Source of the DNA: Escherichia coli
Lineage (GTDB): Bacteria > Pseudomonadota > Gammaproteobacteria > Enterobacterales > Enterobacteriaceae
Assembly: GCF_013315695.1 (NCBI RefSeq)
Contig: NZ_CP054353.1
Length of the DNA stretch: 64,000 bases
Direction: 5' to 3' (one strand)
A program made the translations under genes and the position numbers. Positions 1-64,000 of the stretch are shown here, piece by piece; within the stretch, counting starts at the first letter, position 1; the number at the start of each line of letters is the position of its first letter. The notes beneath the pieces are model-generated. The model saw only the letters and a program-made list of their open reading frames with translations, did not search any database and was not told the origin of the DNA.

Positions 1-66
1 ACAGCTGGCAACAGGCAGCGGAAAGGTACGTCAGCTGGCAGTGCTCCTGAACCACAGGAGACGCGT

Positions 67-156
67 ATGAGCCTGGTGGATATCGCCATTCTTATCCTCA
101 AACTCATTGTTGCAGCACTGCAACTGCTTGATGCTGTTCTGAAATACCTGAAGTAA
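67..156 (+). CDS. tisB: TisB type I toxin (29 aa), SOS-induced membrane peptide; window begins inside the tisAB leader
   Basis: ATG at 67, 29 codons translating MSLVDIAILILKLIVAALQLLDAVLKYLK, stop TAA 154-156; near-identical to K-12 TisB as I remember it; followed by a hairpin terminator. Confidence 0.85.
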   Translation: MSLVDIAILILKLIVAALQLLDAVLKYLK

Positions 157-175
157 TTCAGATTCAAGTCGCACT

Positions 176-206
176 AAAGGGGAGCGGGTAACCGCTCCCC
201 TTTCAT
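176..206 (+). terminator. Intrinsic terminator of tisAB
   Basis: GGGGAGCGG / CCGCTCCCC stem with GTAA loop followed by TTT. Confidence 0.7.
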
Positions 207-435
207 ATTTAGCGTGCGGGTTGGTGTCGGATGCAATGCTGATGCATCTTATCCGCCCTACCATCCCTCCCGGCAACATTTATTGCCGCTTTTGTTTACA
301 TATTCTGCCGCTAAACAATTCCCCATTCCTGGCGTATATCTGGCTAACATTTATCAATGTGATAGATTCCTCTCCCGCATTTATGGGAATGCGTAGTGAC
401 TTATTCTAATTATTTTTATAAAAGCATCCGTGATA

Positions 436-1620
436 ATGAAAAGGCATAGAAACGTCAATTTGTTATTGATGTTGGTATTACTCGTGGCCGTCGGTCAGAT
501 GGCGCAAACCATTTATATTCCAGCTATTGCCGATATGGCGCGCGATCTCAACGTCCGTGAAGGGGCGGTGCAGAGCGTAATGGGCGCTTATCTGCTGACT
601 TACGGTGTCTCACAGCTGTTTTATGGCCCGATTTCCGACCGTGTGGGTCGCCGACCGGTGATCCTCGTCGGAATGTCCATTTTTATGCTGGCAACGCTGG
701 TCGCGGTCACGACCTCCAGTTTGACAGTATTGATTGCCGCCAGCGCGATGCAGGGGATGGGCACCGGCGTTGGCGGCGTAATGGCGCGTACTTTGCCGCG
801 TGATTTATATGAACGGACACAGTTGCGCCACGCTAACAGCCTGTTAAACATGGGGATTCTTGTCAGTCCGTTGCTCGCACCGCTAATCGGCGGTCTGCTG
901 GATACGATGTGGAACTGGCGCGCCTGTTATCTCTTTTTGTTGGTACTTTGTGCCGGTGTGACCTTCAGTATGGCCCGCTGGATGCCGGAAACGCGTCCGG
1001 TCGACGCACCGCGCACGCGCCTGCTTACCAGTTATAAAACGCTTTTCGGTAACAGCGGTTTTAACTGTTATTTGCTGATGCTGATTGGCGGTCTGGCCGG
1101 GATTGCCGCCTTTGAAGCCTGCTCCGGCGTGCTGATGGGCGCGGTGTTAGGGCTGAGCAGTATGACGGTCAGTATTTTGTTTATTCTGCCGATTCCGGCA
1201 GCGTTTTTTGGCGCATGGTTTGCCGGACGTCCCAATAAACGCTTCTCCACGTTAATGTGGCAGTCGGTTATCTGCTGCCTGCTGGCTGGCTTGCTAATGT
1301 GGATCCCCGACTGGTTTGGCGTGATGAATGTCTGGACGCTGCTCGTTCCCGCCGCGCTGTTCTTTTTCGGTGCCGGGATGCTGTTTCCGCTGGCGACCAG
1401 CGGCGCGATGGAGCCGTTCCCTTTCCTGGCGGGCACGGCTGGCGCGCTGGTCGGCGGTCTACAAAACATTGGTTCCGGCGTGCTGGCGTCGCTCTCTGCG
1501 ATGTTGCCGCAAACCGGTCAGGGCAGCCTGGGGTTATTGATGACCTTAATGGGATTGTTGATCGTGCTGTGCTGGCTACCGCTGGCGACGCGGATGTCGC
1601 ATCAGGGGCAGCCCGTTTAA
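436..1620 (+). CDS. emrD: MFS multidrug efflux transporter EmrD (394 aa from the ATG at 436; ORF track starts at GTG 430)
   Basis: Translation MKRHRNVNLLLMLVLLVAVGQMAQTIYIPAIADMARDL... matches EmrD as I remember it; 12-TM MFS-like hydrophobic profile. Confidence 0.9.
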   Translation: MKRHRNVNLLLMLVLLVAVGQMAQTIYIPAIADMARDLNVREGAVQSVMGAYLLTYGVSQLFYGPISDRVGRRPVILVGMSIFMLATLVAVTTSSLTVLIAASAMQGMGTGVGGVMARTLPRDLYERTQLRHANSLLNMGILVSPLLAPLIGGLLDTMWNWRACYLFLLVLCAGVTFSMARWMPETRPVDAPRTRLLTSYKTLFGNSGFNCYLLMLIGGLAGIAAFEACSGVLMGAVLGLSSMTVSILFILPIPAAFFGAWFAGRPNKRFSTLMWQSVICCLLAGLLMWIPDWFGVMNVWTLLVPAALFFFGAGMLFPLATSGAMEPFPFLAGTAGALVGGLQNIGSGVLASLSAMLPQTGQGSLGLLMTLMGLLIVLCWLPLATRMSHQGQPV

Positions 1621-1627
1621 GCTCACG

Positions 1628-2125
1628 TCACCGCAGCATCGTCATCAGCTCCATGGGAGAACGATGCTGCTTTATCAGATCACGCATCACCCGCATATGC
1701 GGCGCGGAGTAAGAATAAAACGCCTGATAGCCCGCACAAAGCACGTTGTCTGGCGTCTCCTCCCGAGCGTGCGGGCACAGCCGATGCCAGTCGCACGCCT
1801 GGCAGCCACGGCGCGGTTGCGGGTTTTCGCTGCCACACCATTTTTGTAGGGTGGCGTCAAAAAGCTCAATCGAAATACGACTGATATCTGCCCGTACCCA
1901 ACACTCGAACAGGGCAATTAAAAATTTCCCCCACAGCTCTGCTGTCACCGAAGCGGCCGTCAGATCGCCCCGGTCATCAAATTCAAGATGGGGAATAAGC
2001 TGTACGGAGCGGATACCCCGTTGTTTGAAATTGTGATAAAAATCGGCAGGTTGCAGAGCATCCTTGTACTCTACAACCAGTTTATGCCTGTCCTCTTCAG
2101 CATCAATGACCTGACTTCCTGTCAT
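1628..2125 (-). CDS. yidF: YidF, Cys-rich putative sulfatase-maturating enzyme-like protein (165 aa)
   Basis: 165-aa ORF with a C-terminal cysteine cluster (CxxC..C); position between emrD and yidG as in K-12. Confidence 0.75.
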   Translation of the reverse strand: MTGSQVIDAEEDRHKLVVEYKDALQPADFYHNFKQRGIRSVQLIPHLEFDDRGDLTAASVTAELWGKFLIALFECWVRADISRISIELFDATLQKWCGSENPQPRRGCQACDWHRLCPHAREETPDNVLCAGYQAFYSYSAPHMRVMRDLIKQHRSPMELMTMLR

Positions 2126-2484
2126 GCGACTCTCTCAATAAATACGATAAGTTGATGTATATGCGTTACAGCAAACAGTATTGCGAGAGATAACACCGCG
2201 AGGGAGATCAAAAATTTGTCACGGACTACGTGAAATTGGGAAAAATCGCTATTCGTGACATCCATTAAATTGCGATTACGGGTGTAGTGCCAGAGGATCA
2301 GCGCCACAATGGCGAGAATGCCAATCGAAATCCAGAATAACATGCCCGCCTGGTGCCAGTTGTGTTTGATAGCCAACGCCATCAACGCGCCGTAGCCCAG
2401 CATGGTACGAAACCACGCCAGTGATGTACGCTCCGGCTGCAGCCCTGGGTCGGCAATGCGTCTGGCTTTGCGGCTATCCGGCAT
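2122..2484 (-). CDS. yidG: Inner membrane protein YidG (120 aa)
   Basis: Small hydrophobic ORF overlapping yidF and yidH by a few nt; K-12 synteny. Confidence 0.75.
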   Translation of the reverse strand: MPDSRKARRIADPGLQPERTSLAWFRTMLGYGALMALAIKHNWHQAGMLFWISIGILAIVALILWHYTRNRNLMDVTNSDFSQFHVVRDKFLISLAVLSLAILFAVTHIHQLIVFIERVA

Positions 2485-2821
2485 ACAACACCAGTCCCAT
2501 AACGATCACCGCTACGACCATCAATATTAAGCTGATGATTAATAAGCTGTTGGTGTAGGGCAGGTCCTCTTTCAGACGCATCGCTTTTTCATTGCGTAAC
2601 CAGCGCAGGTAGCCATACATCGCTAACCCGCCGGAAAACAGACACAACAACAACGCCAGCAGTTCGCGAATGACGGGCGTGGCGAAATCTGGCGCAAGTT
2701 GATCAAGCCCAACCCCCGCCGCCAGAAAGCCTAGTGCGGTACGGATCCACGCCAGAAAAGTACGCTCATTAGCCAGCGAGAAGCGATAATCAGGTGCTTC
2801 TCCGAGGCGGGAAATTTTCAT
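2474..2821 (-). CDS. yidH: Inner membrane protein YidH (115 aa)
   Basis: Small membrane ORF, K-12 synteny. Confidence 0.75.
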   Translation of the reverse strand: MKISRLGEAPDYRFSLANERTFLAWIRTALGFLAAGVGLDQLAPDFATPVIRELLALLLCLFSGGLAMYGYLRWLRNEKAMRLKEDLPYTNSLLIISLILMVVAVIVMGLVLYAG

Positions 2822-2928
2822 TGTTGCTCCTTTGCAATTTCACTAACGCTCTACCTTTAGCGGTTTTTTTAAGAATTTCGTCCACCCGTTTCCTGATATG
2901 CTTTTGCCATCCGCTACAAGGAGGTCAG

Positions 2929-3378
2929 ATGGGTATCATAGCGCAAAATAAAATCAGTTCATTGGGCATGCTGTTCGGTGCCATCGCTTTAATAATGGGG
3001 ATTATCCATTTTTCATTCGGCCCTTTTTCCGCACCACCGCCAACGCTTGAAAGCATCGTGGCGGACAAAACGGCTGAAATTAAAAGAGGTCTTCTCGCCG
3101 GAATAAAAGGCGAAAAAATTACCACCGTGGAGAAAAAAGAGGACGTAGATGTCGATAAAATCCTCGATCAAAGCGGTATCGCACTGGCCATTGCTGCGCT
3201 ACTTTGCGCATTTATTGGCGGTATGCGTAAGGAAAATCGCTGGGGCATTCACGGCGCGCTGGTTTTTGGCGGCGGGACGCTGGCTTTCCATACCTTGCTT
3301 TTTGGTATCGGCATCGTGTGCAGCATTTTGCTGATATTCCTTATCTTTTCCTTCCTGACCGGCGGTTCACTGGTTTAA
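2929..3378 (+). CDS. yidI: Inner membrane protein YidI (149 aa from ATG 2929, preceded by GGAGG)
   Basis: SD GGAGG then ATG; hydrophobic 149-aa product; longer ORF-track start at 2794 lacks an SD. Confidence 0.75.
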   Translation: MGIIAQNKISSLGMLFGAIALIMGIIHFSFGPFSAPPPTLESIVADKTAEIKRGLLAGIKGEKITTVEKKEDVDVDKILDQSGIALAIAALLCAFIGGMRKENRWGIHGALVFGGGTLAFHTLLFGIGIVCSILLIFLIFSFLTGGSLV

Positions 3379-3386
3379 GCAGCCTG

Positions 3387-3422
3387 AATAATGCCCGCCG
3401 GGTGTTCATCAGCGGGCATTAT
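3387..3422. terminator. Bidirectional hairpin between convergent yidI and yidJ
   Basis: AATAATGCCCGC ... GCGGGCATTAT inverted repeat with 13-nt loop. Confidence 0.6.
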
Positions 3423-3424
3423 CG

Positions 3425-4910
3425 TCAGAACTTCTGTTTTTTCTCTTCCACCTTCACCCCTTGTGTCGGTAGGCCGGTGTCATAGTCGCGTACCACTGGC
3501 GAATAGCCATCTTGTGGGCGTGGACGAAACGCCCCCATCCAGCGCGGTCGTGCATCTTTACGCCACGGACGCAGACTCCACTGGTAACTGCGGAACGGAT
3601 CGCGAATTTTATCCATGTAATCCAATAAGGCGTCATGCATTTTGCGGCGAACGTCGGCAAAACGGATATCATCTATCAGGTTATGCATTTCATTTGAATC
3701 ATTACGGCGATCGTAAAGTTCATCACTGGTGAAGAGGTTGAGCACCAGTTTAAAGTCATCCGTCACCCAGCAACGCACCGGAATAAAACCGCCAAAGCTG
3801 TCATGCTCAATCTCGTAGCGGTTAAATTCCACCATTACACCGCGTGGCTCTTTCACGGCAAGGATATTTTCCCCCGGCAGAATCTCTGGTTTTTCAATAT
3901 CTGCCAGCGCCATCATTGTCGGCAGTAAATCGATATGACTGACTGGCGTATCGACCTGTCGCCGCTCCCCTTGCGGCGAACGGATGATCAGCGGAATGCG
4001 GGTGATGTCGTCATACATCGCCGCTCCTTTACTGATCAGCTTATGTGCGCCCATCATTTCGCCGTGATCGGAGGTATAAATGACCCACGTATTTTCACGT
4101 TGCTCTGACGTTAAGGCATTGATGACCCGTCCGATTTGGTCATCAACAAAGTCATTGCAGGCAAAATAGAGCGGATGGTGATAAAGCCCGTCATCACCGA
4201 CTGGCGATGGCATCGCCTGCGCCCATAAGCGGTGATGTTCCGGTTTGTTCGCCAGGTCATCCTGTGATTTCTCGCCAAGTTCGTAGTAAAAATCAGCGTA
4301 TTTCTCTAAATACTCCACCGGACAGGTGAACGGGTGATGCGGCTCATCATACGAAACCACCATCAGGAAGGGTTCCTCGGCGCGCGCGGGCTGTTGCAGA
4401 AAATCTACCGCCCGATTGCTGATGCGGTGCGCCCAGGTGAAGGTTTCGTCGATATGGTTCGCCTGTAAATCCTCAACGCTGTTTAGGCCATTGCGCCACA
4501 GGCTGATCTCTTTTTCCGTCAGTTCGCTAAGGTAGTTCGCCCCATCGAACCAGTAATCAGCGTCCCACTCCGGCGGACACTCGCCAGTGCCGAAATAGTC
4601 ATGACCGTCGAGATGCCATTTGCCGATGTAACAGGTGTGATAGCCCGCATCCTTAAAGTAGCGTCCCATAGTGGAGATGTTTTTGCCCGGCGCGACGTTG
4701 TTGGTCCACGGGCCGGACTGGTTAGCGTAGATACCGGTAAACAGCCCGGCGCGCGCTGGTGTACAAACCGGTGAACAGGTGTAGGCGGAATTAAAGCGAA
4801 TACTTTCCACTATCAATATTTTGCGTATTCAGCGGCTTACCGCTATAGCAACCGACCATATTGGTGGCCTGGGTATCGGTCATGATGAACAGAAAATTGG
4901 GGCGTTTCAT
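3425..4910 (-). pseudogene. yidJ: Cys-type sulfatase YidJ, reading frame broken near the N-terminus
   Basis: ATG at 4910-4908 (overlapping the yidK stop) opens a frame encoding MKRPNFLFIMTDTQATNMVGCYSGKPLNTQNID... that stops at 4793-4791; the rest of the sulfatase (CSPVCTPAR active-site motif onward) is in another frame, open only from about 4828 and reported from TTG 4816 to 3425. The two frames overlap within about 4791-4828. Confidence 0.7.
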
Positions 4911-6622
4911 AGGCTATCCTTCGCGTCGGGAGTAAAGGTTACGGCTGGGTCGTGACGATGCCGCCAGCTGTCAAAAATCAGGTAGACAATCACTACGGCA
5001 GCGATGAAATAACTGATCATCGCTAACCAGCGCGTACCGTAGCCGCCGAATTCAGCCAGCCCGGCATAGACGCCAATCATAGCGAACAGGATGCCAATTG
5101 ACGCGATCTTGACGTTTTTCCACGGTTTCATGTCCACCGCAAACGCATCTTTGAAGGTGAACGGCGTGGCGCGCGGTTTGATAAAACCGATCACCAGCAT
5201 CACGACCACGTTGATGCAGAACGTACAGGCCAGCACATAGAGGAAATGGAAGTCGAACTTCACCAGATAGTTGATGGTGATGTAGCTGATTATGCCAATC
5301 CCCATCGCCACTTTTGCCGCCAGCGCTGGAATGCGCGGGAAGAAAAAGCCCATAATGATGATGGTAACCAGCGGCACGTTGTAAATGCCGTTGAGCTGTT
5401 TCATCCAGCTATACAGCCCCTGCGGCGCGTTGGCGATCCACGGCGCTACCAGCACCGAAACGATGGCGATAAAGAAACCAAATTTGCGCCCGACGGTGAC
5501 CAGCTGCTGCGGCTCGGCATTCTGGTTAATGATGCGACGGTAAATACCCATACTGAATAACGTACTGGCGCTATTCAGAAAGCCGTTGAAGGTACTGATC
5601 ACCGCACCAAATAACACCGCGCCGAAGAAACCCACCAGTGGCACTGGCAGAACGTTATTGACCAGCGTCGGGTAGGCCATGTCGGCTTTCGGTAGATCCT
5701 GATACAGATGAAACGCAATCAACCCTGGCAGCACCAGTACCAGCGGGTCGAGCATTTTCAGCACCGCCGTTAACAGCGCCCCCTTTTGCCCTTCCGCCAG
5801 GCTTTTTGACGCCAGCGTGCGTTGCACGATGCCCTGATTTGTACACCAGTAAAAGGTGTTCACCAGAATCAAACCGGTAAATGCCGCGCCAATCGGCAAG
5901 GGATCGGTCGGGCCACCGACTGAGTTTAATTTCTCGGCGTGAACGGTGGTGAGTTGCTCAATGCCCTGCATAAAGCTGCCCTTGCCCATCGCGATCAGGC
6001 CAAATATCGGCACCATCAACCCGCCAATAACCAGCCCAATACCGTTGATGGAGTCCGCCACTGCCATTGCGCGCAGTCCGCCGATCACCGCATACAAAAT
6101 TCCCGCCAGACCAAGCAAAATTACCAATAGCCAGATAGCCGCACCGTGAGAAATCTGTAGCGATTCCCCGACGTGAAACAGGCTGTTGAGCGCCAACGCG
6201 CCGGAGTAGAGAACAATCGGCAGAAAGCAGACGCCGGTGGCAATGAGGAAGCAGAAGTCGATGATAATACGCGTCGTTTTATCATAACGTTCCTCCAGAA
6301 AATCGGGGATGGTGGCAATGCCGCGCTTCAGATAGCGCGGTAAAAAGATTAGCGCGAGGAAGATCAGCGTCACTGCAGAGGTGACTTCCCAGCCCATCAC
6401 CGACATGCCGCTTTTGTAGGCCTGCCCGGAAAGGCCGACCAGTTGTTCCGTGGAAAGGTTGGTTAGCATTAACGAAGCGGCAATAACCGGCGCTTTTAGT
6501 GAACGTCCGGCAAGAAAATAGCCTTGTTGCGATCCGGTATCTGTTTTACGGACCTTCCACCAGGTGATGATCGCCACCAGCAGCGTAAAACCGACAAAAC
6601 TCAAGATTTGTAACGAATTCAT
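4907..6622 (-). CDS. yidK: Sodium:solute symporter family transporter YidK (571 aa)
   Basis: 571-aa polytopic membrane protein; K-12 synteny between yidJ and yidL. Confidence 0.85.
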   Translation of the reverse strand: MNSLQILSFVGFTLLVAIITWWKVRKTDTGSQQGYFLAGRSLKAPVIAASLMLTNLSTEQLVGLSGQAYKSGMSVMGWEVTSAVTLIFLALIFLPRYLKRGIATIPDFLEERYDKTTRIIIDFCFLIATGVCFLPIVLYSGALALNSLFHVGESLQISHGAAIWLLVILLGLAGILYAVIGGLRAMAVADSINGIGLVIGGLMVPIFGLIAMGKGSFMQGIEQLTTVHAEKLNSVGGPTDPLPIGAAFTGLILVNTFYWCTNQGIVQRTLASKSLAEGQKGALLTAVLKMLDPLVLVLPGLIAFHLYQDLPKADMAYPTLVNNVLPVPLVGFFGAVLFGAVISTFNGFLNSASTLFSMGIYRRIINQNAEPQQLVTVGRKFGFFIAIVSVLVAPWIANAPQGLYSWMKQLNGIYNVPLVTIIIMGFFFPRIPALAAKVAMGIGIISYITINYLVKFDFHFLYVLACTFCINVVVMLVIGFIKPRATPFTFKDAFAVDMKPWKNVKIASIGILFAMIGVYAGLAEFGGYGTRWLAMISYFIAAVVIVYLIFDSWRHRHDPAVTFTPDAKDSL

Positions 6623-6788
6623 CTCATAGCCCTTATTTATGTTTATGTCCCGGACGCATGAATATAGGGAGAGGTAAAATGCGTCGGGTCAGGCAGTCAG
6701 ATTCTTAAAATACAAACATCGTATCCCTGAACGGATTGTTTTCTGTTAAGTTCAGGTTGTGAGCATAATTCGCCGGAGGGATATTAAA

Positions 6789-10617
<3,829 letters not shown>

Positions 10618-10912
10618 TTCCACATCCTCTTTTCTCAATTCTGTAAGTAGGAAGCCTGATTGGTTATGCGGCAGGCCTGGAGCGAGGATAGGAAGATGCG
10701 ATCGGCAGAACATGACGACCCAATGGGATTCGTGATCGCTTTCATGCTTTTCGTTGGGCGGTAGAGATCTACGTTTTCGCAAAAAAGTAGACATCTGTGA
10801 GCACTGGTACACAGCAACGAACACATCTTTAAAAAAAAGATGTTTTTTCAATCGATTAAGCAGAACTTGTGGGCGCATTACCCGGGCTTGCAGGCAAAAA
10901 AGAGATCTAGAG

Positions 10913-11200
10913 ATGATCTACAAAAGCATTGCGGAGCGGTTAAGAATTCGACTTAACTCCGCGGATTTCACGCTAAACAGCCTTCTTCCCGGTGAAAAAA
11001 AGCTGGCGGAAGAGTTTGCGGTATCGCGGATGACCATCCGTAAAGACATTGACCTGCTGGTAGCGTGGGGGCTGGTGGTCCGCCGCCACGGTAGCGGCAC
11101 TTACCTGGTGCGCAAAGATGTACTGCATCAAACCGCCAGCCTGACCGGGCTGGTGGAGGTGTTAAAACGCCAGGGAAAAACGGTCACCAGCCAGGTGTAA
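10913..11200 (+). pseudogene. yidP: GntR-family regulator YidP, N-terminal 95 codons only; truncated by IS4, whose terminal TAA supplies the stop
   Basis: Winged-helix GntR motif (LPGEKKLAEEFAVSRMTIRKDIDLLVAWGLV); ORF ends exactly at the IS4 inverted repeat at 11198. Confidence 0.8.
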
Positions 11201-12623
11201 TGCCAGTCAGTTAAGCAACTGACTGGCTCTTTTTCGGGGCTGTGGGGTATTTCCAGGGCCTCTCCTTTACCACTCTCGGGAAGGCCCTTTCCCTTCTTGT
11301 CGGTAATTTCACAAGTTGTCCCATACTTGCAAGATCGCGCATCAGCTCCGGTATACGTCCCGGTGAAGCGCCCTGCAATGTCATCAGCATTCTCATCACC
11401 ATTCCGCATGATTCTGAGAAACTCAGTTGATTCGGCCAGTAACCTTTCAGATGTTCCGCCATTTTAATCATCTGATATCTCACCAGATTATAAGCCAGTA
11501 AGACACCCCACAGCTCTTGCTCCACAAGCTCCGGTTTTTTACTTCTCAGCGTCAGCCTGCTCAGTTGCATCGTCTGTTTTATCTCCCTGTATCCCAGTTC
11601 GATTTCCCAGCGATGACTGTACAGATCCGCCATTTCTCCTCCGGGGAAGCGCATGGCGTCCGTCATCGACGTCAGCAGATGGCAGACTTTTCCTTTGCGC
11701 GTCACGGTCAGCAGGCGGGCTGTCACTTCATTTCCCAGTCCCGGCCACTTTTTTCGTGCCTGCGGGCTGGTTTTCAGCTTCACCAGATGATCGCCTTTAC
11801 CCAGTTTTCTGATCTCTTCATATTGCGCTCCCTTTCTGAGAGGTATCATCCAGTGGCGGTGTTCTCCCGCCAGGCTCCAGGCATTTAACAGTCCCAGTGA
11901 GTAATAACCTTTATCCATTAACGTCAGAGTGTTATCGCCGGTTTGTTCTATAAGTTGCTCAGCAAGCTCATTTTCGCTGTTCTTCATCGTGCCGAAGGCT
12001 GCAGCCGTCAGCAGATGGCTGGTCAGTTCCATCTGGCAGACCATTTTGACCTGCGGGTAGAGCGCCGGGTTCCCGGCATGTGTCTGGCGGGGGAAGGCTG
12101 CATCGTTCTCTGGTGTATCCGGTGTGCGCCAGAACACACCATCGATGGCCAGCAGGGTCAGGCCGCACCAGTGCGGATGCGGCGTGGCGTTATGCCAGAG
12201 CTGCGCTGTTTTCGTGAACACGCGGCGGACAGCCTCACTTCCCAGGCGCTGGCGGGCCTGAATAACGGCACTGGGGGCAACGAAGGGGCGATTGCCCGGC
12301 AGCATGATGTCCAGGCGATTCACAATCTGGTGAAGAGGTTCTTTACGCTCAAGCGCCATGCCAACAATACACCAGACCATCATTTCGAGGGGAAGACGGC
12401 GCTTGCGTAGCGTTACAGTACCTGATTCGGCAAGGCAACGAGAGATGAGTTCGGGGTCGAGGTAATCCCCCAGAGAAGTCAGTGGGTTACGCAGAGAATC
12501 GTAACGGGATACCAGATCAAGAGCCTGTCCAATGTGCATAAAAAAATCCGGAAACAAGTGAGCGTTTCCGGATTCTTACACAGCCACTGGATCGGTCAAC
12601 TGATCCTTAACTGATCGGCATTA
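11198..12623 (-). mobile_element. Complete IS4 insertion sequence (1426 bp) with imperfect 18-bp terminal inverted repeats
   Basis: Ends TAATGCCAGTCAGTTAAG (11198-) and CTTAACTGATCGGCATTA (-12623) match each other at 16 of 18 positions; 1426 bp total; contains an IS4-type transposase. The 12 bp flanking each side are unrelated (no target-site duplication). Confidence 0.9.
11211..12539 (-). CDS. insG: IS4 transposase (442 aa from [10 protein letters not shown]...)
   Basis: Translation matches the IS4 transposase as I remember it; ORF-track start at 12557 is 6 codons upstream. Confidence 0.9.
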
Positions 12624-12712
12624 CCCCCCTTTGAGACTATTTTAGCCACCAGCAAGAAACGTCTATACTCGCAATTTACGCAGAACTTTTGACGAAAGGA
12701 CGCCACTTCATT

Positions 12713-55464: not shown

Positions 55465-56268
55465 AAGGGATCAGCCAAATTTAGGTAACACGTTAAAGAC
55501 GTTACCGAACCAGCATAAAATTACGGTTATACCAAAGAGAATGACAATCGCCGGAATAAGATTGCCGCCCCAGACCGTGAACATCTGATTGGGAAACTTC
55601 TTGCGAGCTTTGATTGCCAGCACTGCGGGAATAATGACCGCCCAGATGGTGGCGCACAGTCCGGCACCGCCGATCCCGTAAATGAAGCCGTTCGGGAAGA
55701 TCAGATACAACAAAGCAGGTGGCAGGAAGGTTAACAGCACGGTTTTGAAACGCCCGCCGTGGGAGTTATCAATCTTAAACAGATCCGCCAGATAATCGAA
55801 CAATCCCAGCGTGACACCAAAGAACGAACTGGCAACAGCTAAGTTGGAGAACACCAGCAGGCAAAACTCGATAATCCCATGCTGTTTGGTGCCGAGGAAC
55901 GATTTCACCAGCGAATCAACGTTGCCGCCTGAGGAGATTATCGCCTTAAAGCTTTCGCGCGGAATATTCCCCATCGTGCAATAGAGCCAGAAGAGATAAA
56001 TCACCAGCGCCAGCAGCGAACCAAAGACCACGCTTTTGATTAACTTATCTTTGCGTTTGCCATAGCAAATAATCAGGCTGGGAATATTGCCGTGGAAACC
56101 AAATGACGCCAGACACACCGGCAAAGCCATAAAGATATACGGGAAGTAAGACGTTCCCGCAGTGGTGCTGGTGGCATCGCGCAGAATGGAGTAATCGACC
56201 TGGAAGAAGAAAGGGTGATGCTGCCAACTTACTGATTTAGTGTATGATGGTGTTTTTGAGGTGCTCCA

Positions 56269-56544
56269 GTGGCTTCTGTTTCTATCAGCTGTCCCTCCTG
56301 TTCAGCTACTGACGGGGTGGTGCGTAACGGCAAAAGCACCGCCGGACATCAGCGCTATCTCTGCTCTCACTGCCGTAAAACATGGCAACTGCAGTTCACT
56401 TACACCGCTTCTCAACCCGGTACGCACCAGAAAATCATTGATATGGCCATGAATGGCGTTGGATGCCGGGCAACAGCCCGCATTATGGGCGTTGGCCTCA
56501 ACACGATTTTACGTCACTTAAAAAACTCAGGCCGCAGTCGGTAA
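56269..56544 (+). CDS. insA: IS1 InsA (91 aa)
   Basis: [43 protein letters not shown]... Confidence 0.9.
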
Positions 56545-56966
56545 CCTCGCGCATACAGCCGGGCAGTGACGTCATCGTCTGCGCGGAAATGGACGAACAG
56601 TGGGGCTATGTCGGGGCTAAATCGCGCCAGCGCTGGCTGTTTTACGCGTATGACAGGCTCCGGAAGACGGTTGTTGCGCACGTATTCGGTGAACGCACTA
56701 TGGCGACGCTGGGGCGTCTTATGAGCCTGCTGTCACCCTTTGACGTGGTGATATGGATGACGGATGGCTGGCCGCTGTATGAATCCCGCCTGAAGGGAAA
56801 GCTGCACGTAATCAGCAAGCGATATACGCAGCGAATTGAGCGGCATAACCTGAATCTGAGGCAGCACCTGGCACGGCTGGGACGGAAGTCGCTGTCGTTC
56901 TCAAAATCGGTGGAGCTGCATGACAAAGTCATCGGGCATTATCTGAACATAAAACACTATCAATAA
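56463..56966 (+). CDS. insB: IS1 InsB (167 aa; expressed as an InsAB' fusion by -1 frameshifting)
   Basis: Overlaps insA in the -1 frame, canonical IS1 organisation. Confidence 0.85.
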
Positions 56967-57585
56967 GTTGGAGTCATTACCAGAAGAAAGAACCAAACAC
57001 GATCACAAAGGAGATAATCTTCAGCCCGAGGAACAATGAGGTAATACGACTGGCGGCTAACGAGCTTATCCACAATACGCTGGCAACGAAAATGGCTGTG
57101 CAGATCCCGACAATACGCGGATTAGCGTGATAGCCCAAATTCATTGATATTGTTTCACTAATGATCGCACCATTAGCAGAGATATAGGCATAAGTGAGGA
57201 TATAGAGAACGAAGGCAACGGTAATACCGCTGATAATGTTCCAGGTGTTACCGATTAAATCTTTGGTGATGGTGTTAAAACTGGAGCCGACAGGATAATT
57301 TAAATTTGCTTCTAATAACAATAACCCGGAATGAAGCATTGAAAACCAGGCAATGATAAGGATAAAGGCACCCCAGAAAAACCAGGCACCGGCAAGATCA
57401 ACAGGTAAAGCAAACATACCTCCACCAATTACTGTACCTGCTATAACCATAACACCCCAAAATGCAGAGTGCTTTTTTTCAGCTTGATCAGTCATGATGC
57501 CACCTTTAGAGGAAGGCTATTTTTGTTATTGAGGATGTAGGGTAAGAGAGTGGCTAACATCCTTATAGCCACTCTGTAGTATTAA

Positions 57586-63639: not shown

Positions 63640-64000
63640 GTAAAGCGCAAGGATCGTCCTGGATCTTTATTAGATCGATTAAGCCAATTTTTGTCTATGG
63701 TCATTAAATTTTCCAATATGCGGCGTAAATCGTGCCCGGCCCGCGGCAGGATCGTTTACACTTAGCGAGTTCTGGAAAGTCCTGTGGATAAATCGGGAAA
63801 ATCTGTGAGAAACAGAAGATCTCTTGCGCAGTTTAGGCTATGATCCGCGGTCCCGATCGTTTTGCAGGATCTTGATCGGGCATATAACCGCAGACAGCGG
63901 TTCGTGCGTCACCCTCATGCAGGGTCTTTTCGACGTACGTCAACAATCATGAATGTTTCAGCCTTAGTCATTATCGACTTTTGTTCGAGTGGAGTCCGCC
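63640..64000 (+). promoter_or_regulatory. dnaA promoter region (dnaA CDS begins just beyond the window end)
   Basis: DnaA box TGTGGATAA at 63783-63791 and at least 8 GATC sites in about 240 bp; the window ends with GTTCGAGTGGAGTCCGCC, which I recall as the bases immediately preceding the dnaA GTG start. Confidence 0.75.

Follow-up and report, generated by a model that had tools for sequence, protein, structure and literature searches.

An 8-bp deletion that very probably inactivated the putative sulfatase gene yidJ in one lineage of human-gut Escherichia coli

The closest described counterpart of the locus analyzed here is yidJ of E. coli K-12 (b3678), which, together with its 497-aa orthologues (such as WP_000828518.1 of isolate AF3), lies in the neighbour order emrD-yidFGH-yidI-yidJ-yidK-yidL-glv and begins at an ATG that overlaps the end of the symporter gene yidK. 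YidJ is a putative S1 sulfatase of the formylglycine type, and as it carries no signal peptide it is presumably cytoplasmic. In NCBIfam searches it matches the arylsulfatase and choline-sulfatase models, in both cases with scores well below the cut-offs. No functional characterization was found in the literature on yidJ, yidF, aslB and ydeM, which yielded only a citation of Benjdia et al. 2007 and a mention in a comparative-genomics context.

The yidJ gene of the window (the whole stretch of 64,000 nucleotides analyzed here, taken from E. coli assembly GCF_013315695.1, contig NZ_CP054353.1) shares its locus, neighbour order and yidK-overlapping start codon with K-12 and other E. coli, but differs from all of these orthologues in lacking the eight bases CTGGCGGC, which leaves a 39-codon stub and a remainder in the +1 frame. 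We consider it very probable that a genuine 8-bp deletion inactivated yidJ recently in one gut E. coli lineage, in which it has been inherited, and that the resulting allele is null, as predicted from its sequence. The result is an ordinary lineage-specific pseudogene, which adds one more case to a very well-known type of gene loss.

The positions of the two parts of yidJ and of the neighbouring genes are listed in Table 1. The yidJ start codon (ATG, 4910-4908) shares bases with the yidK stop codon (TGA, 4909-4907) in the tetranucleotide ATGA. From this ATG, the first frame (frame A) reads MKRPNFLFIMTDTQATNMVGCYSGKPLNTQNIDSGKYSL and is ended after 39 codons by a TAA at 4793-4791; residues 1-34 of this product are those of native YidJ, while the final five (GKYSL) come from the wrong reading frame. 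In the +1 frame, a stop at 4831-4829 is followed by an open stretch that begins at 4828, includes IVESIRFNSAYTCSPVCTPAR and ends at the stop at 3427-3425. Its possible starts are TTG 4816 and GTG 4810, the first of which opens the mechanical ORF (TTG 4816 to 3425, 463 aa). This +1-frame part encodes CSPVCTPAR, in which C-T-P-A-R provides the C/S-x-P-x-R formylglycine motif, together with the remaining sulfatase and SGSH_C domains. A sequence-only reading of the same DNA had placed the start of yidJ at the ATG overlapping the yidK stop, the end of that frame at 4793-4791 and the rest of the gene, including CSPVCTPAR, in another frame open from 4828, and every one of these coordinates was reproduced when the frames were read. 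Its assignment of the N-terminus is also right, as intact orthologues consist of one 497-aa ORF from the same ATG.

Table 1. Positions of the yidJ lesion, the two parts of yidJ and neighbouring genes in the window
Feature	Position	Strand	Basis or context
Deletion junction	4808..4809	-	Alignment; 8 bases missing between 4809 and 4808
5' yidJ fragment	4791..4910	-	Frame reading and Pfam Sulfatase profile 1-31
3' yidJ part, +1 frame	3425..4808	-	ORF list, Pfam profile 35-301, public-contig gene calls
yidF, 165 aa	1628..2125	-	ORF list; Pfam, NCBIfam and PDB sequence searches
yidG and yidH, intact DUF202 membrane proteins	2122..2821	-	Co-oriented with yidF, overlapping yidF
yidK, intact sodium:solute symporter	4907..6622	-	Upstream of yidJ, same operon
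yidL, intact AraC-family regulator	6789..7682	+	Divergent from yidKJ

When compared with the Pfam Sulfatase profile (PF00884), the 39-aa peptide matches positions 1-31 (scoring 18.7 bits against a cut-off of 25), the 463-aa ORF matches positions 35-301 and the intact AF3 orthologue matches positions 1-301. Because the two ORFs of the window match consecutive parts of a single profile, they represent one frame-split gene and not two chance ORFs; no single polypeptide encoded in the window spans the whole sulfatase domain. We regard this yidJ as a type I (S1) sulfatase gene by descent and a predicted pseudogene as encoded, and it should be annotated in the deletion lineage as a frameshifted pseudogene rather than as two "genes".

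The check that the sequence-only reading had proposed, alignment to intact yidJ, was carried out with the allele of FDAARGOS_497 and that of a K-12-like strain. On the coding strand, CTGGCGGC is missing between GATAGT and GGAAAG, placing the junction at 4809|4808, and these eight bases are present in every E. coli compared. Outside of the gap, the 176 bp aligned show no difference between the window and the FDAARGOS_497 allele. The codons affected are 35-37: Leu35, Ala36 and part of Ala37 are gone and the downstream frame is shifted by +1. The lesion had been predicted to be a single-base indel within 4791-4828; the interval was correct, but the alignment rules out a change of one base and shows a deletion of 8 bp in its place. 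When a flanking direct repeat or microhomology was sought by eye at the junction, none was found. A phase-variable contingency locus, operating by slippage in a repeat tract, was considered and rejected, as the local GGC unit does not go into CTGGCGGC a whole number of times and no microhomology is present at the junction.

Window positions 4600-5000 were compared by megablast with 5,426 complete RefSeq E. coli genomes. The locus was found in 5,114 of these, and the deletion allele was absent from all 5,426; in the best match, 401 query bases aligned with 409 subject bases at 98.0% identity, corresponding to the 8-base gap. This absence from complete genomes, together with the position of the missing bases in a G+C-rich stretch (CTGGCGGCGG), is what might be expected if the eight bases were present in the organism and had been dropped from the record through a sequencing or assembly error. 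The evidence on this point comes from raw public assemblies, in which the exact 39-aa frameshift peptide was looked up. In 26 blocks of public assemblies, this product, which can arise only from the 8-bp lesion, was encoded by 24 or more contigs. Ten contigs were read, each from a separate sample among ENA human-gut metagenomes and Logan assemblies. The exact 33-base junction AAAATATTGATAGTGGAAAGTATTCGCTTTAAT, which in its intact form is a 41-mer, is present in 10/10, and the contigs match the window at 99.95-100% identity across 2-6 kb when a run of N in one of them (L014) is set aside. That run, which is due to scaffolding, is also the source of an apparent 10-base gap in L014 that was considered as a second yidJ lesion and rejected as a sign of decay. 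Private SNPs were found in four of the ten contigs (at window positions 7849, 6291, 7375/7311 and 3779), while the window agrees with AF3 at each of these positions; these four are thus distinct genomes that inherited the deletion. A junction assembled independently and identically in ten different samples, four of them with private SNPs, argues strongly against an error in the record, and the loss of eight bases is atypical of homopolymer or compression errors. We consider a sequencing or assembly error to be exceedingly improbable.

Between the two outcomes that the sequence-only reading had put forward, sequencing error is therefore refuted by these ten assemblies, whereas gene decay is supported, intact orthologues having a single 497-aa ORF. 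In public metagenome assemblies, gene callers split the deletion allele into ORFs of 39 aa and 461 aa. The 461-aa call, with a GTG start, is present in the protein collection; a search of the same collection for the 463-aa product with the TTG start found no such entry.

The nearest complete genomes to the window are those of AF3 (NZ_OZ547117.1, from a UK blood culture) and MSB1_4I, in a lineage that carries many IS4 and IS1 copies and has IAI39 and CE10 among its relatives. Over window positions 1-12,624, the window and AF3 differ in two places only, at the 8-bp gap and by a substitution within an IS4 (position 12,290), and the remaining comparable 32.8 kb contain eight substitutions and one 2-base gap. 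As AF3 carries an intact yidJ, this near-identity implies that the loss of the gene is recent. When the 3' part of yidJ was compared with the K-12-like allele, pS was 0.128 and pN was 0.0055, and the resulting pN/pS of 0.043 suggests that yidJ has been under purifying selection and was functional until recently. These results indicate that the 3' remainder of yidJ has not decayed and that the loss occurred recently, in a shallow clade. We propose that the deletion arose in a shallow clade of phylogroup-F-like, IS4/IS1-rich human-gut E. coli and has been inherited there. As such, it would be a clean marker by which to recognize a clonal sublineage of gut-associated E. coli, and AF3-like intact strains could be set against deletion strains, as a natural near-isogenic pair, in the search for what the YidK/YidJ transporter-sulfatase system acts on.

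In S1 sulfatases, the conserved N-terminal Asp is a ligand of the catalytic metal. Intact YidJ opens with the first strand of the sulfatase fold: from residue 2 onward it aligns to the N-terminal strand of the solved S1 sulfatases 9IHK and 7OZ8, and Asp12 (in FIMTDTQ) falls on the conserved Asp of these structures. In the window, Asp12 is encoded only on the 39-aa stub, and neither this residue nor the N-terminal strand is joined to the catalytic domain. The yidJ gene is predicted to be translationally coupled to yidK, and ribosomes starting at the native, yidK-coupled ATG would reach a stop after 39 codons. The other 461-463 codons lie in the +1 frame and lack a dedicated ribosome-binding site; a product translated from them would in any case be without the first beta-strand and Asp12. 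Because the 34 N-terminal residues that are lost hold both of these features, the deletion allele of yidJ is most likely null.

It might be argued from the 461-aa ORF placed here by gene callers, which has a strong Sulfatase match, that translation from GTG 4810 or TTG 4816 yields a sulfatase that has lost its N-terminus but is still active. Three observations make this very improbable. First, neither GTG 4810 (AATATTGATA-GTG) nor TTG 4816 is preceded by a Shine-Dalgarno sequence. Second, profile positions 1-34, and with them the first core strand and Asp12, would be absent from the product. Third, all intact orthologues begin at the yidK-coupled ATG.

The frames of the yidJ deletion allele may also be compared with those of prfB (RF2), in which a CUU UGA C site is used for +1 frameshifting. 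At the prfB site, CUU precedes the stop, a Shine-Dalgarno-like stimulator is located approximately 3 nt upstream and the stop context is weak; UAA-U, in contrast, is a strong termination context. The yidJ allele resembles prfB in that CUU stands directly before the in-frame stop (CTT TAA, 4796-4791) and the downstream ORF is in the +1 frame, and the +1 frame entered from UUU/AAU is the native YidJ frame. Slippage at this position would produce a near-full-length sulfatase (MKRP...NIDSGKYSL-NSAYTCSPVC...) and, if true, would constitute a naturally arisen, unselected, stop-adjacent +1 frameshift that rescues a fresh pseudogene. The site differs from that of prfB, however, in that it has no proper Shine-Dalgarno stimulator or spacing, has the strong stop UAA U, is not conserved and is the product of a recent deletion. 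Specifically, the upstream sequence GGAAAG-TATTCG-CTT is a weak Shine-Dalgarno mimic with a spacer of 6 nt and not 3 nt, and the stop is followed by T (TAA-T), as in strong terminators. CTTTAA itself consists of the native Arg-Phe-Asn codons (CGC TTT AAT) read out of frame, as found in every intact allele. With respect to conservation, 5,114/5,114 locus-bearing complete genomes carry the eight bases and hence have a single ORF, while the split arrangement is confined to one shallow, young clade that differs from AF3 by approximately 1 SNP per 12 kb. Furthermore, the product would be three residues shorter than YidJ, with GKYSL in place of the conserved LAAESIRF segment, which aligns to 'idrLAkeG' and 'lDaLAseGtlF' in solved homologues.

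A programmed +1 frameshift of the prfB type was accordingly rejected: the slippery site is present, but the stimulator, the stop context and the conservation of such a site are not. Expression of yidJ as a near-full-length sulfatase through prfB-like slippage has very little probability in our view, and it is just as doubtful that slippage at CUU UAA yields a low but useful level of shortened YidJ (with GKYSL for LAAESIRF). A trace readthrough product may arise at this position.

A different natural lesion of yidJ is found in another human gut isolate, E. coli MS 198-1 (NZ_CP146687.1; L015, 3425-6356), in which an IS4 is inserted approximately 255 nt into the gene and the interrupted gene is annotated as two partial pseudogene pieces. 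This case is similar to that of the window in being a natural inactivation in a gut strain, but it is an IS4 insertion in a different lineage (98.5% identity) and thus an independent event. Other truncated YidJ N-termini in public E. coli data (P0002, P0011, P0013) have the ends ...NTQKY (stop), ...NTAKY (stop) and ...NIDTWFQPITS. The first of these is present on 23 contigs and could result from the gain of one A in the CAAAAT run, while the second is that of SQD00493.1. Several other YidJ N-terminal fragments are contig-end partials that break near the site of the 8-bp indel. Based on the megablast results, the region is missing in approximately 6% of complete genomes and kept in approximately 94%.

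Recent inactivation of yidJ in one lineage would be compatible with an adaptive and recurrent loss of the gene, in which the enzyme is costly in some gut niches and which would explain why the allele persists. The independent lesions (IS4 in MS 198-1, ...NTQKY and ...NTAKY), the genomes without the region and the spread of the deletion clade to several human cohorts are in keeping with this explanation. However, the great majority of complete genomes retain the region, a pN/pS of 0.04 points to long-term purifying selection, the lesions are rare and dispersed, a pattern that neutral turnover of an accessory catabolic gene would produce, and some of the short sequences in the fragment cluster only reflect the ends of contigs. 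Adaptive loss is for these reasons unlikely, and the pattern fits the sporadic loss of an accessory catabolic gene.

The sequence-only reading had contrasted the frameshifted sulfatase gene with an intact gene for its putative maturase, yidF. This contrast is misleading: the yidF ORF is as long as its counterparts in the four other E. coli genomes compared, but it does not encode an intact maturase. YidF is annotated as a 'radical SAM protein', yet its matches to anaerobic sulfatase maturases are limited to their distal third. It has no match in Pfam, Radical_SAM included. In NCBIfam, it matches TIGR03942 only at positions ~160-245 and in a C-terminal stretch, with a score of 75.9 bits that is far below the family cut-off of 349.45, and in a PDB sequence search it aligns to residues 175-246 and 314-370 of anSMEcpe (4K36). 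YidF retains the CxxCxxxxxC...C motif of the C-terminal auxiliary cluster found in the AslB, AtsB and anSMEcpe maturases. In contrast to these anaerobic sulfatase-maturating enzymes, it begins at profile position ~160 and is therefore without the N-terminal ~160 residues, which hold the CxxxCxxC radical-SAM domain, and approximately 65 internal residues are also missing. As the overlapping yidG takes up the DNA upstream of yidF, a missed annotation does not account for the absent half. The pN/pS of YidF is 0.18, a figure with few changes behind it. YidF is an old remnant of an anaerobic sulfatase maturase that has the same 165-aa form in all E. coli examined, and its intactness says little about the sulfatase. 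Consequently, "YidF, putative YidJ maturase" should not be counted as a functional radical-SAM maturase.

The genes surrounding yidJ (yidK, yidL and yidFGH) are untouched in the window, and the deletion is not expected to be polar, given that yidJ comes last in the yidKJ pair. The adjacent glv genes, which include those for a 440-aa 6-phospho-alpha-glucosidase and a PTS IIBC protein, are intact in the window (7679-10878, minus strand). In a K-12-like genome, the glv genes bear a frameshift and an internal stop in the annotation, which treats them as pseudogenes. In one of the deletion-bearing contigs (L005, from the HAYD20 sample; positions 1-232), the private SNP at window position 7849 is C>T and lies at the place where glvA, which encodes the 6-phospho-alpha-glucosidase, is called as two pieces of 384 aa and 54 aa.

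Beyond glv, an IS4 is located in yidP (window positions 11197-12624), as in AF3. To the right of this element, the gene order as far as position 64000 is ravA-viaA-asnA-asnC-mioC-gidAB-atp-glmUS-lpf-pst...tnaA-mnmE-yidC, from which it follows that a segment of approximately 72 kb between two inverted IS4 copies, containing oriC and dnaA, is inverted with respect to AF3. The target-site duplications of the window IS4 are mismatched: the left one (ACCAGCCAGGT) is that of the AF3 yidP copy, while the right one (CCCCCTTTGA) is that of the AF3 kup/ravA copy. Such a mismatch reads as the signature of recombination between two IS4 copies. None of the best-matching complete genomes spans the yidP-IS4-ravA junction, and the IS4-flanked inversion may be either a real event or an assembly choice made across the repeat. 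An IS1 at window positions 56212-56981 interrupts tnaB, the tryptophan permease gene beside tnaA, as it does in AF3. AF3 also has an IS1 in dgoD and 18 IS4-containing places, and many IS1 and IS4 copies are present in the lineage.
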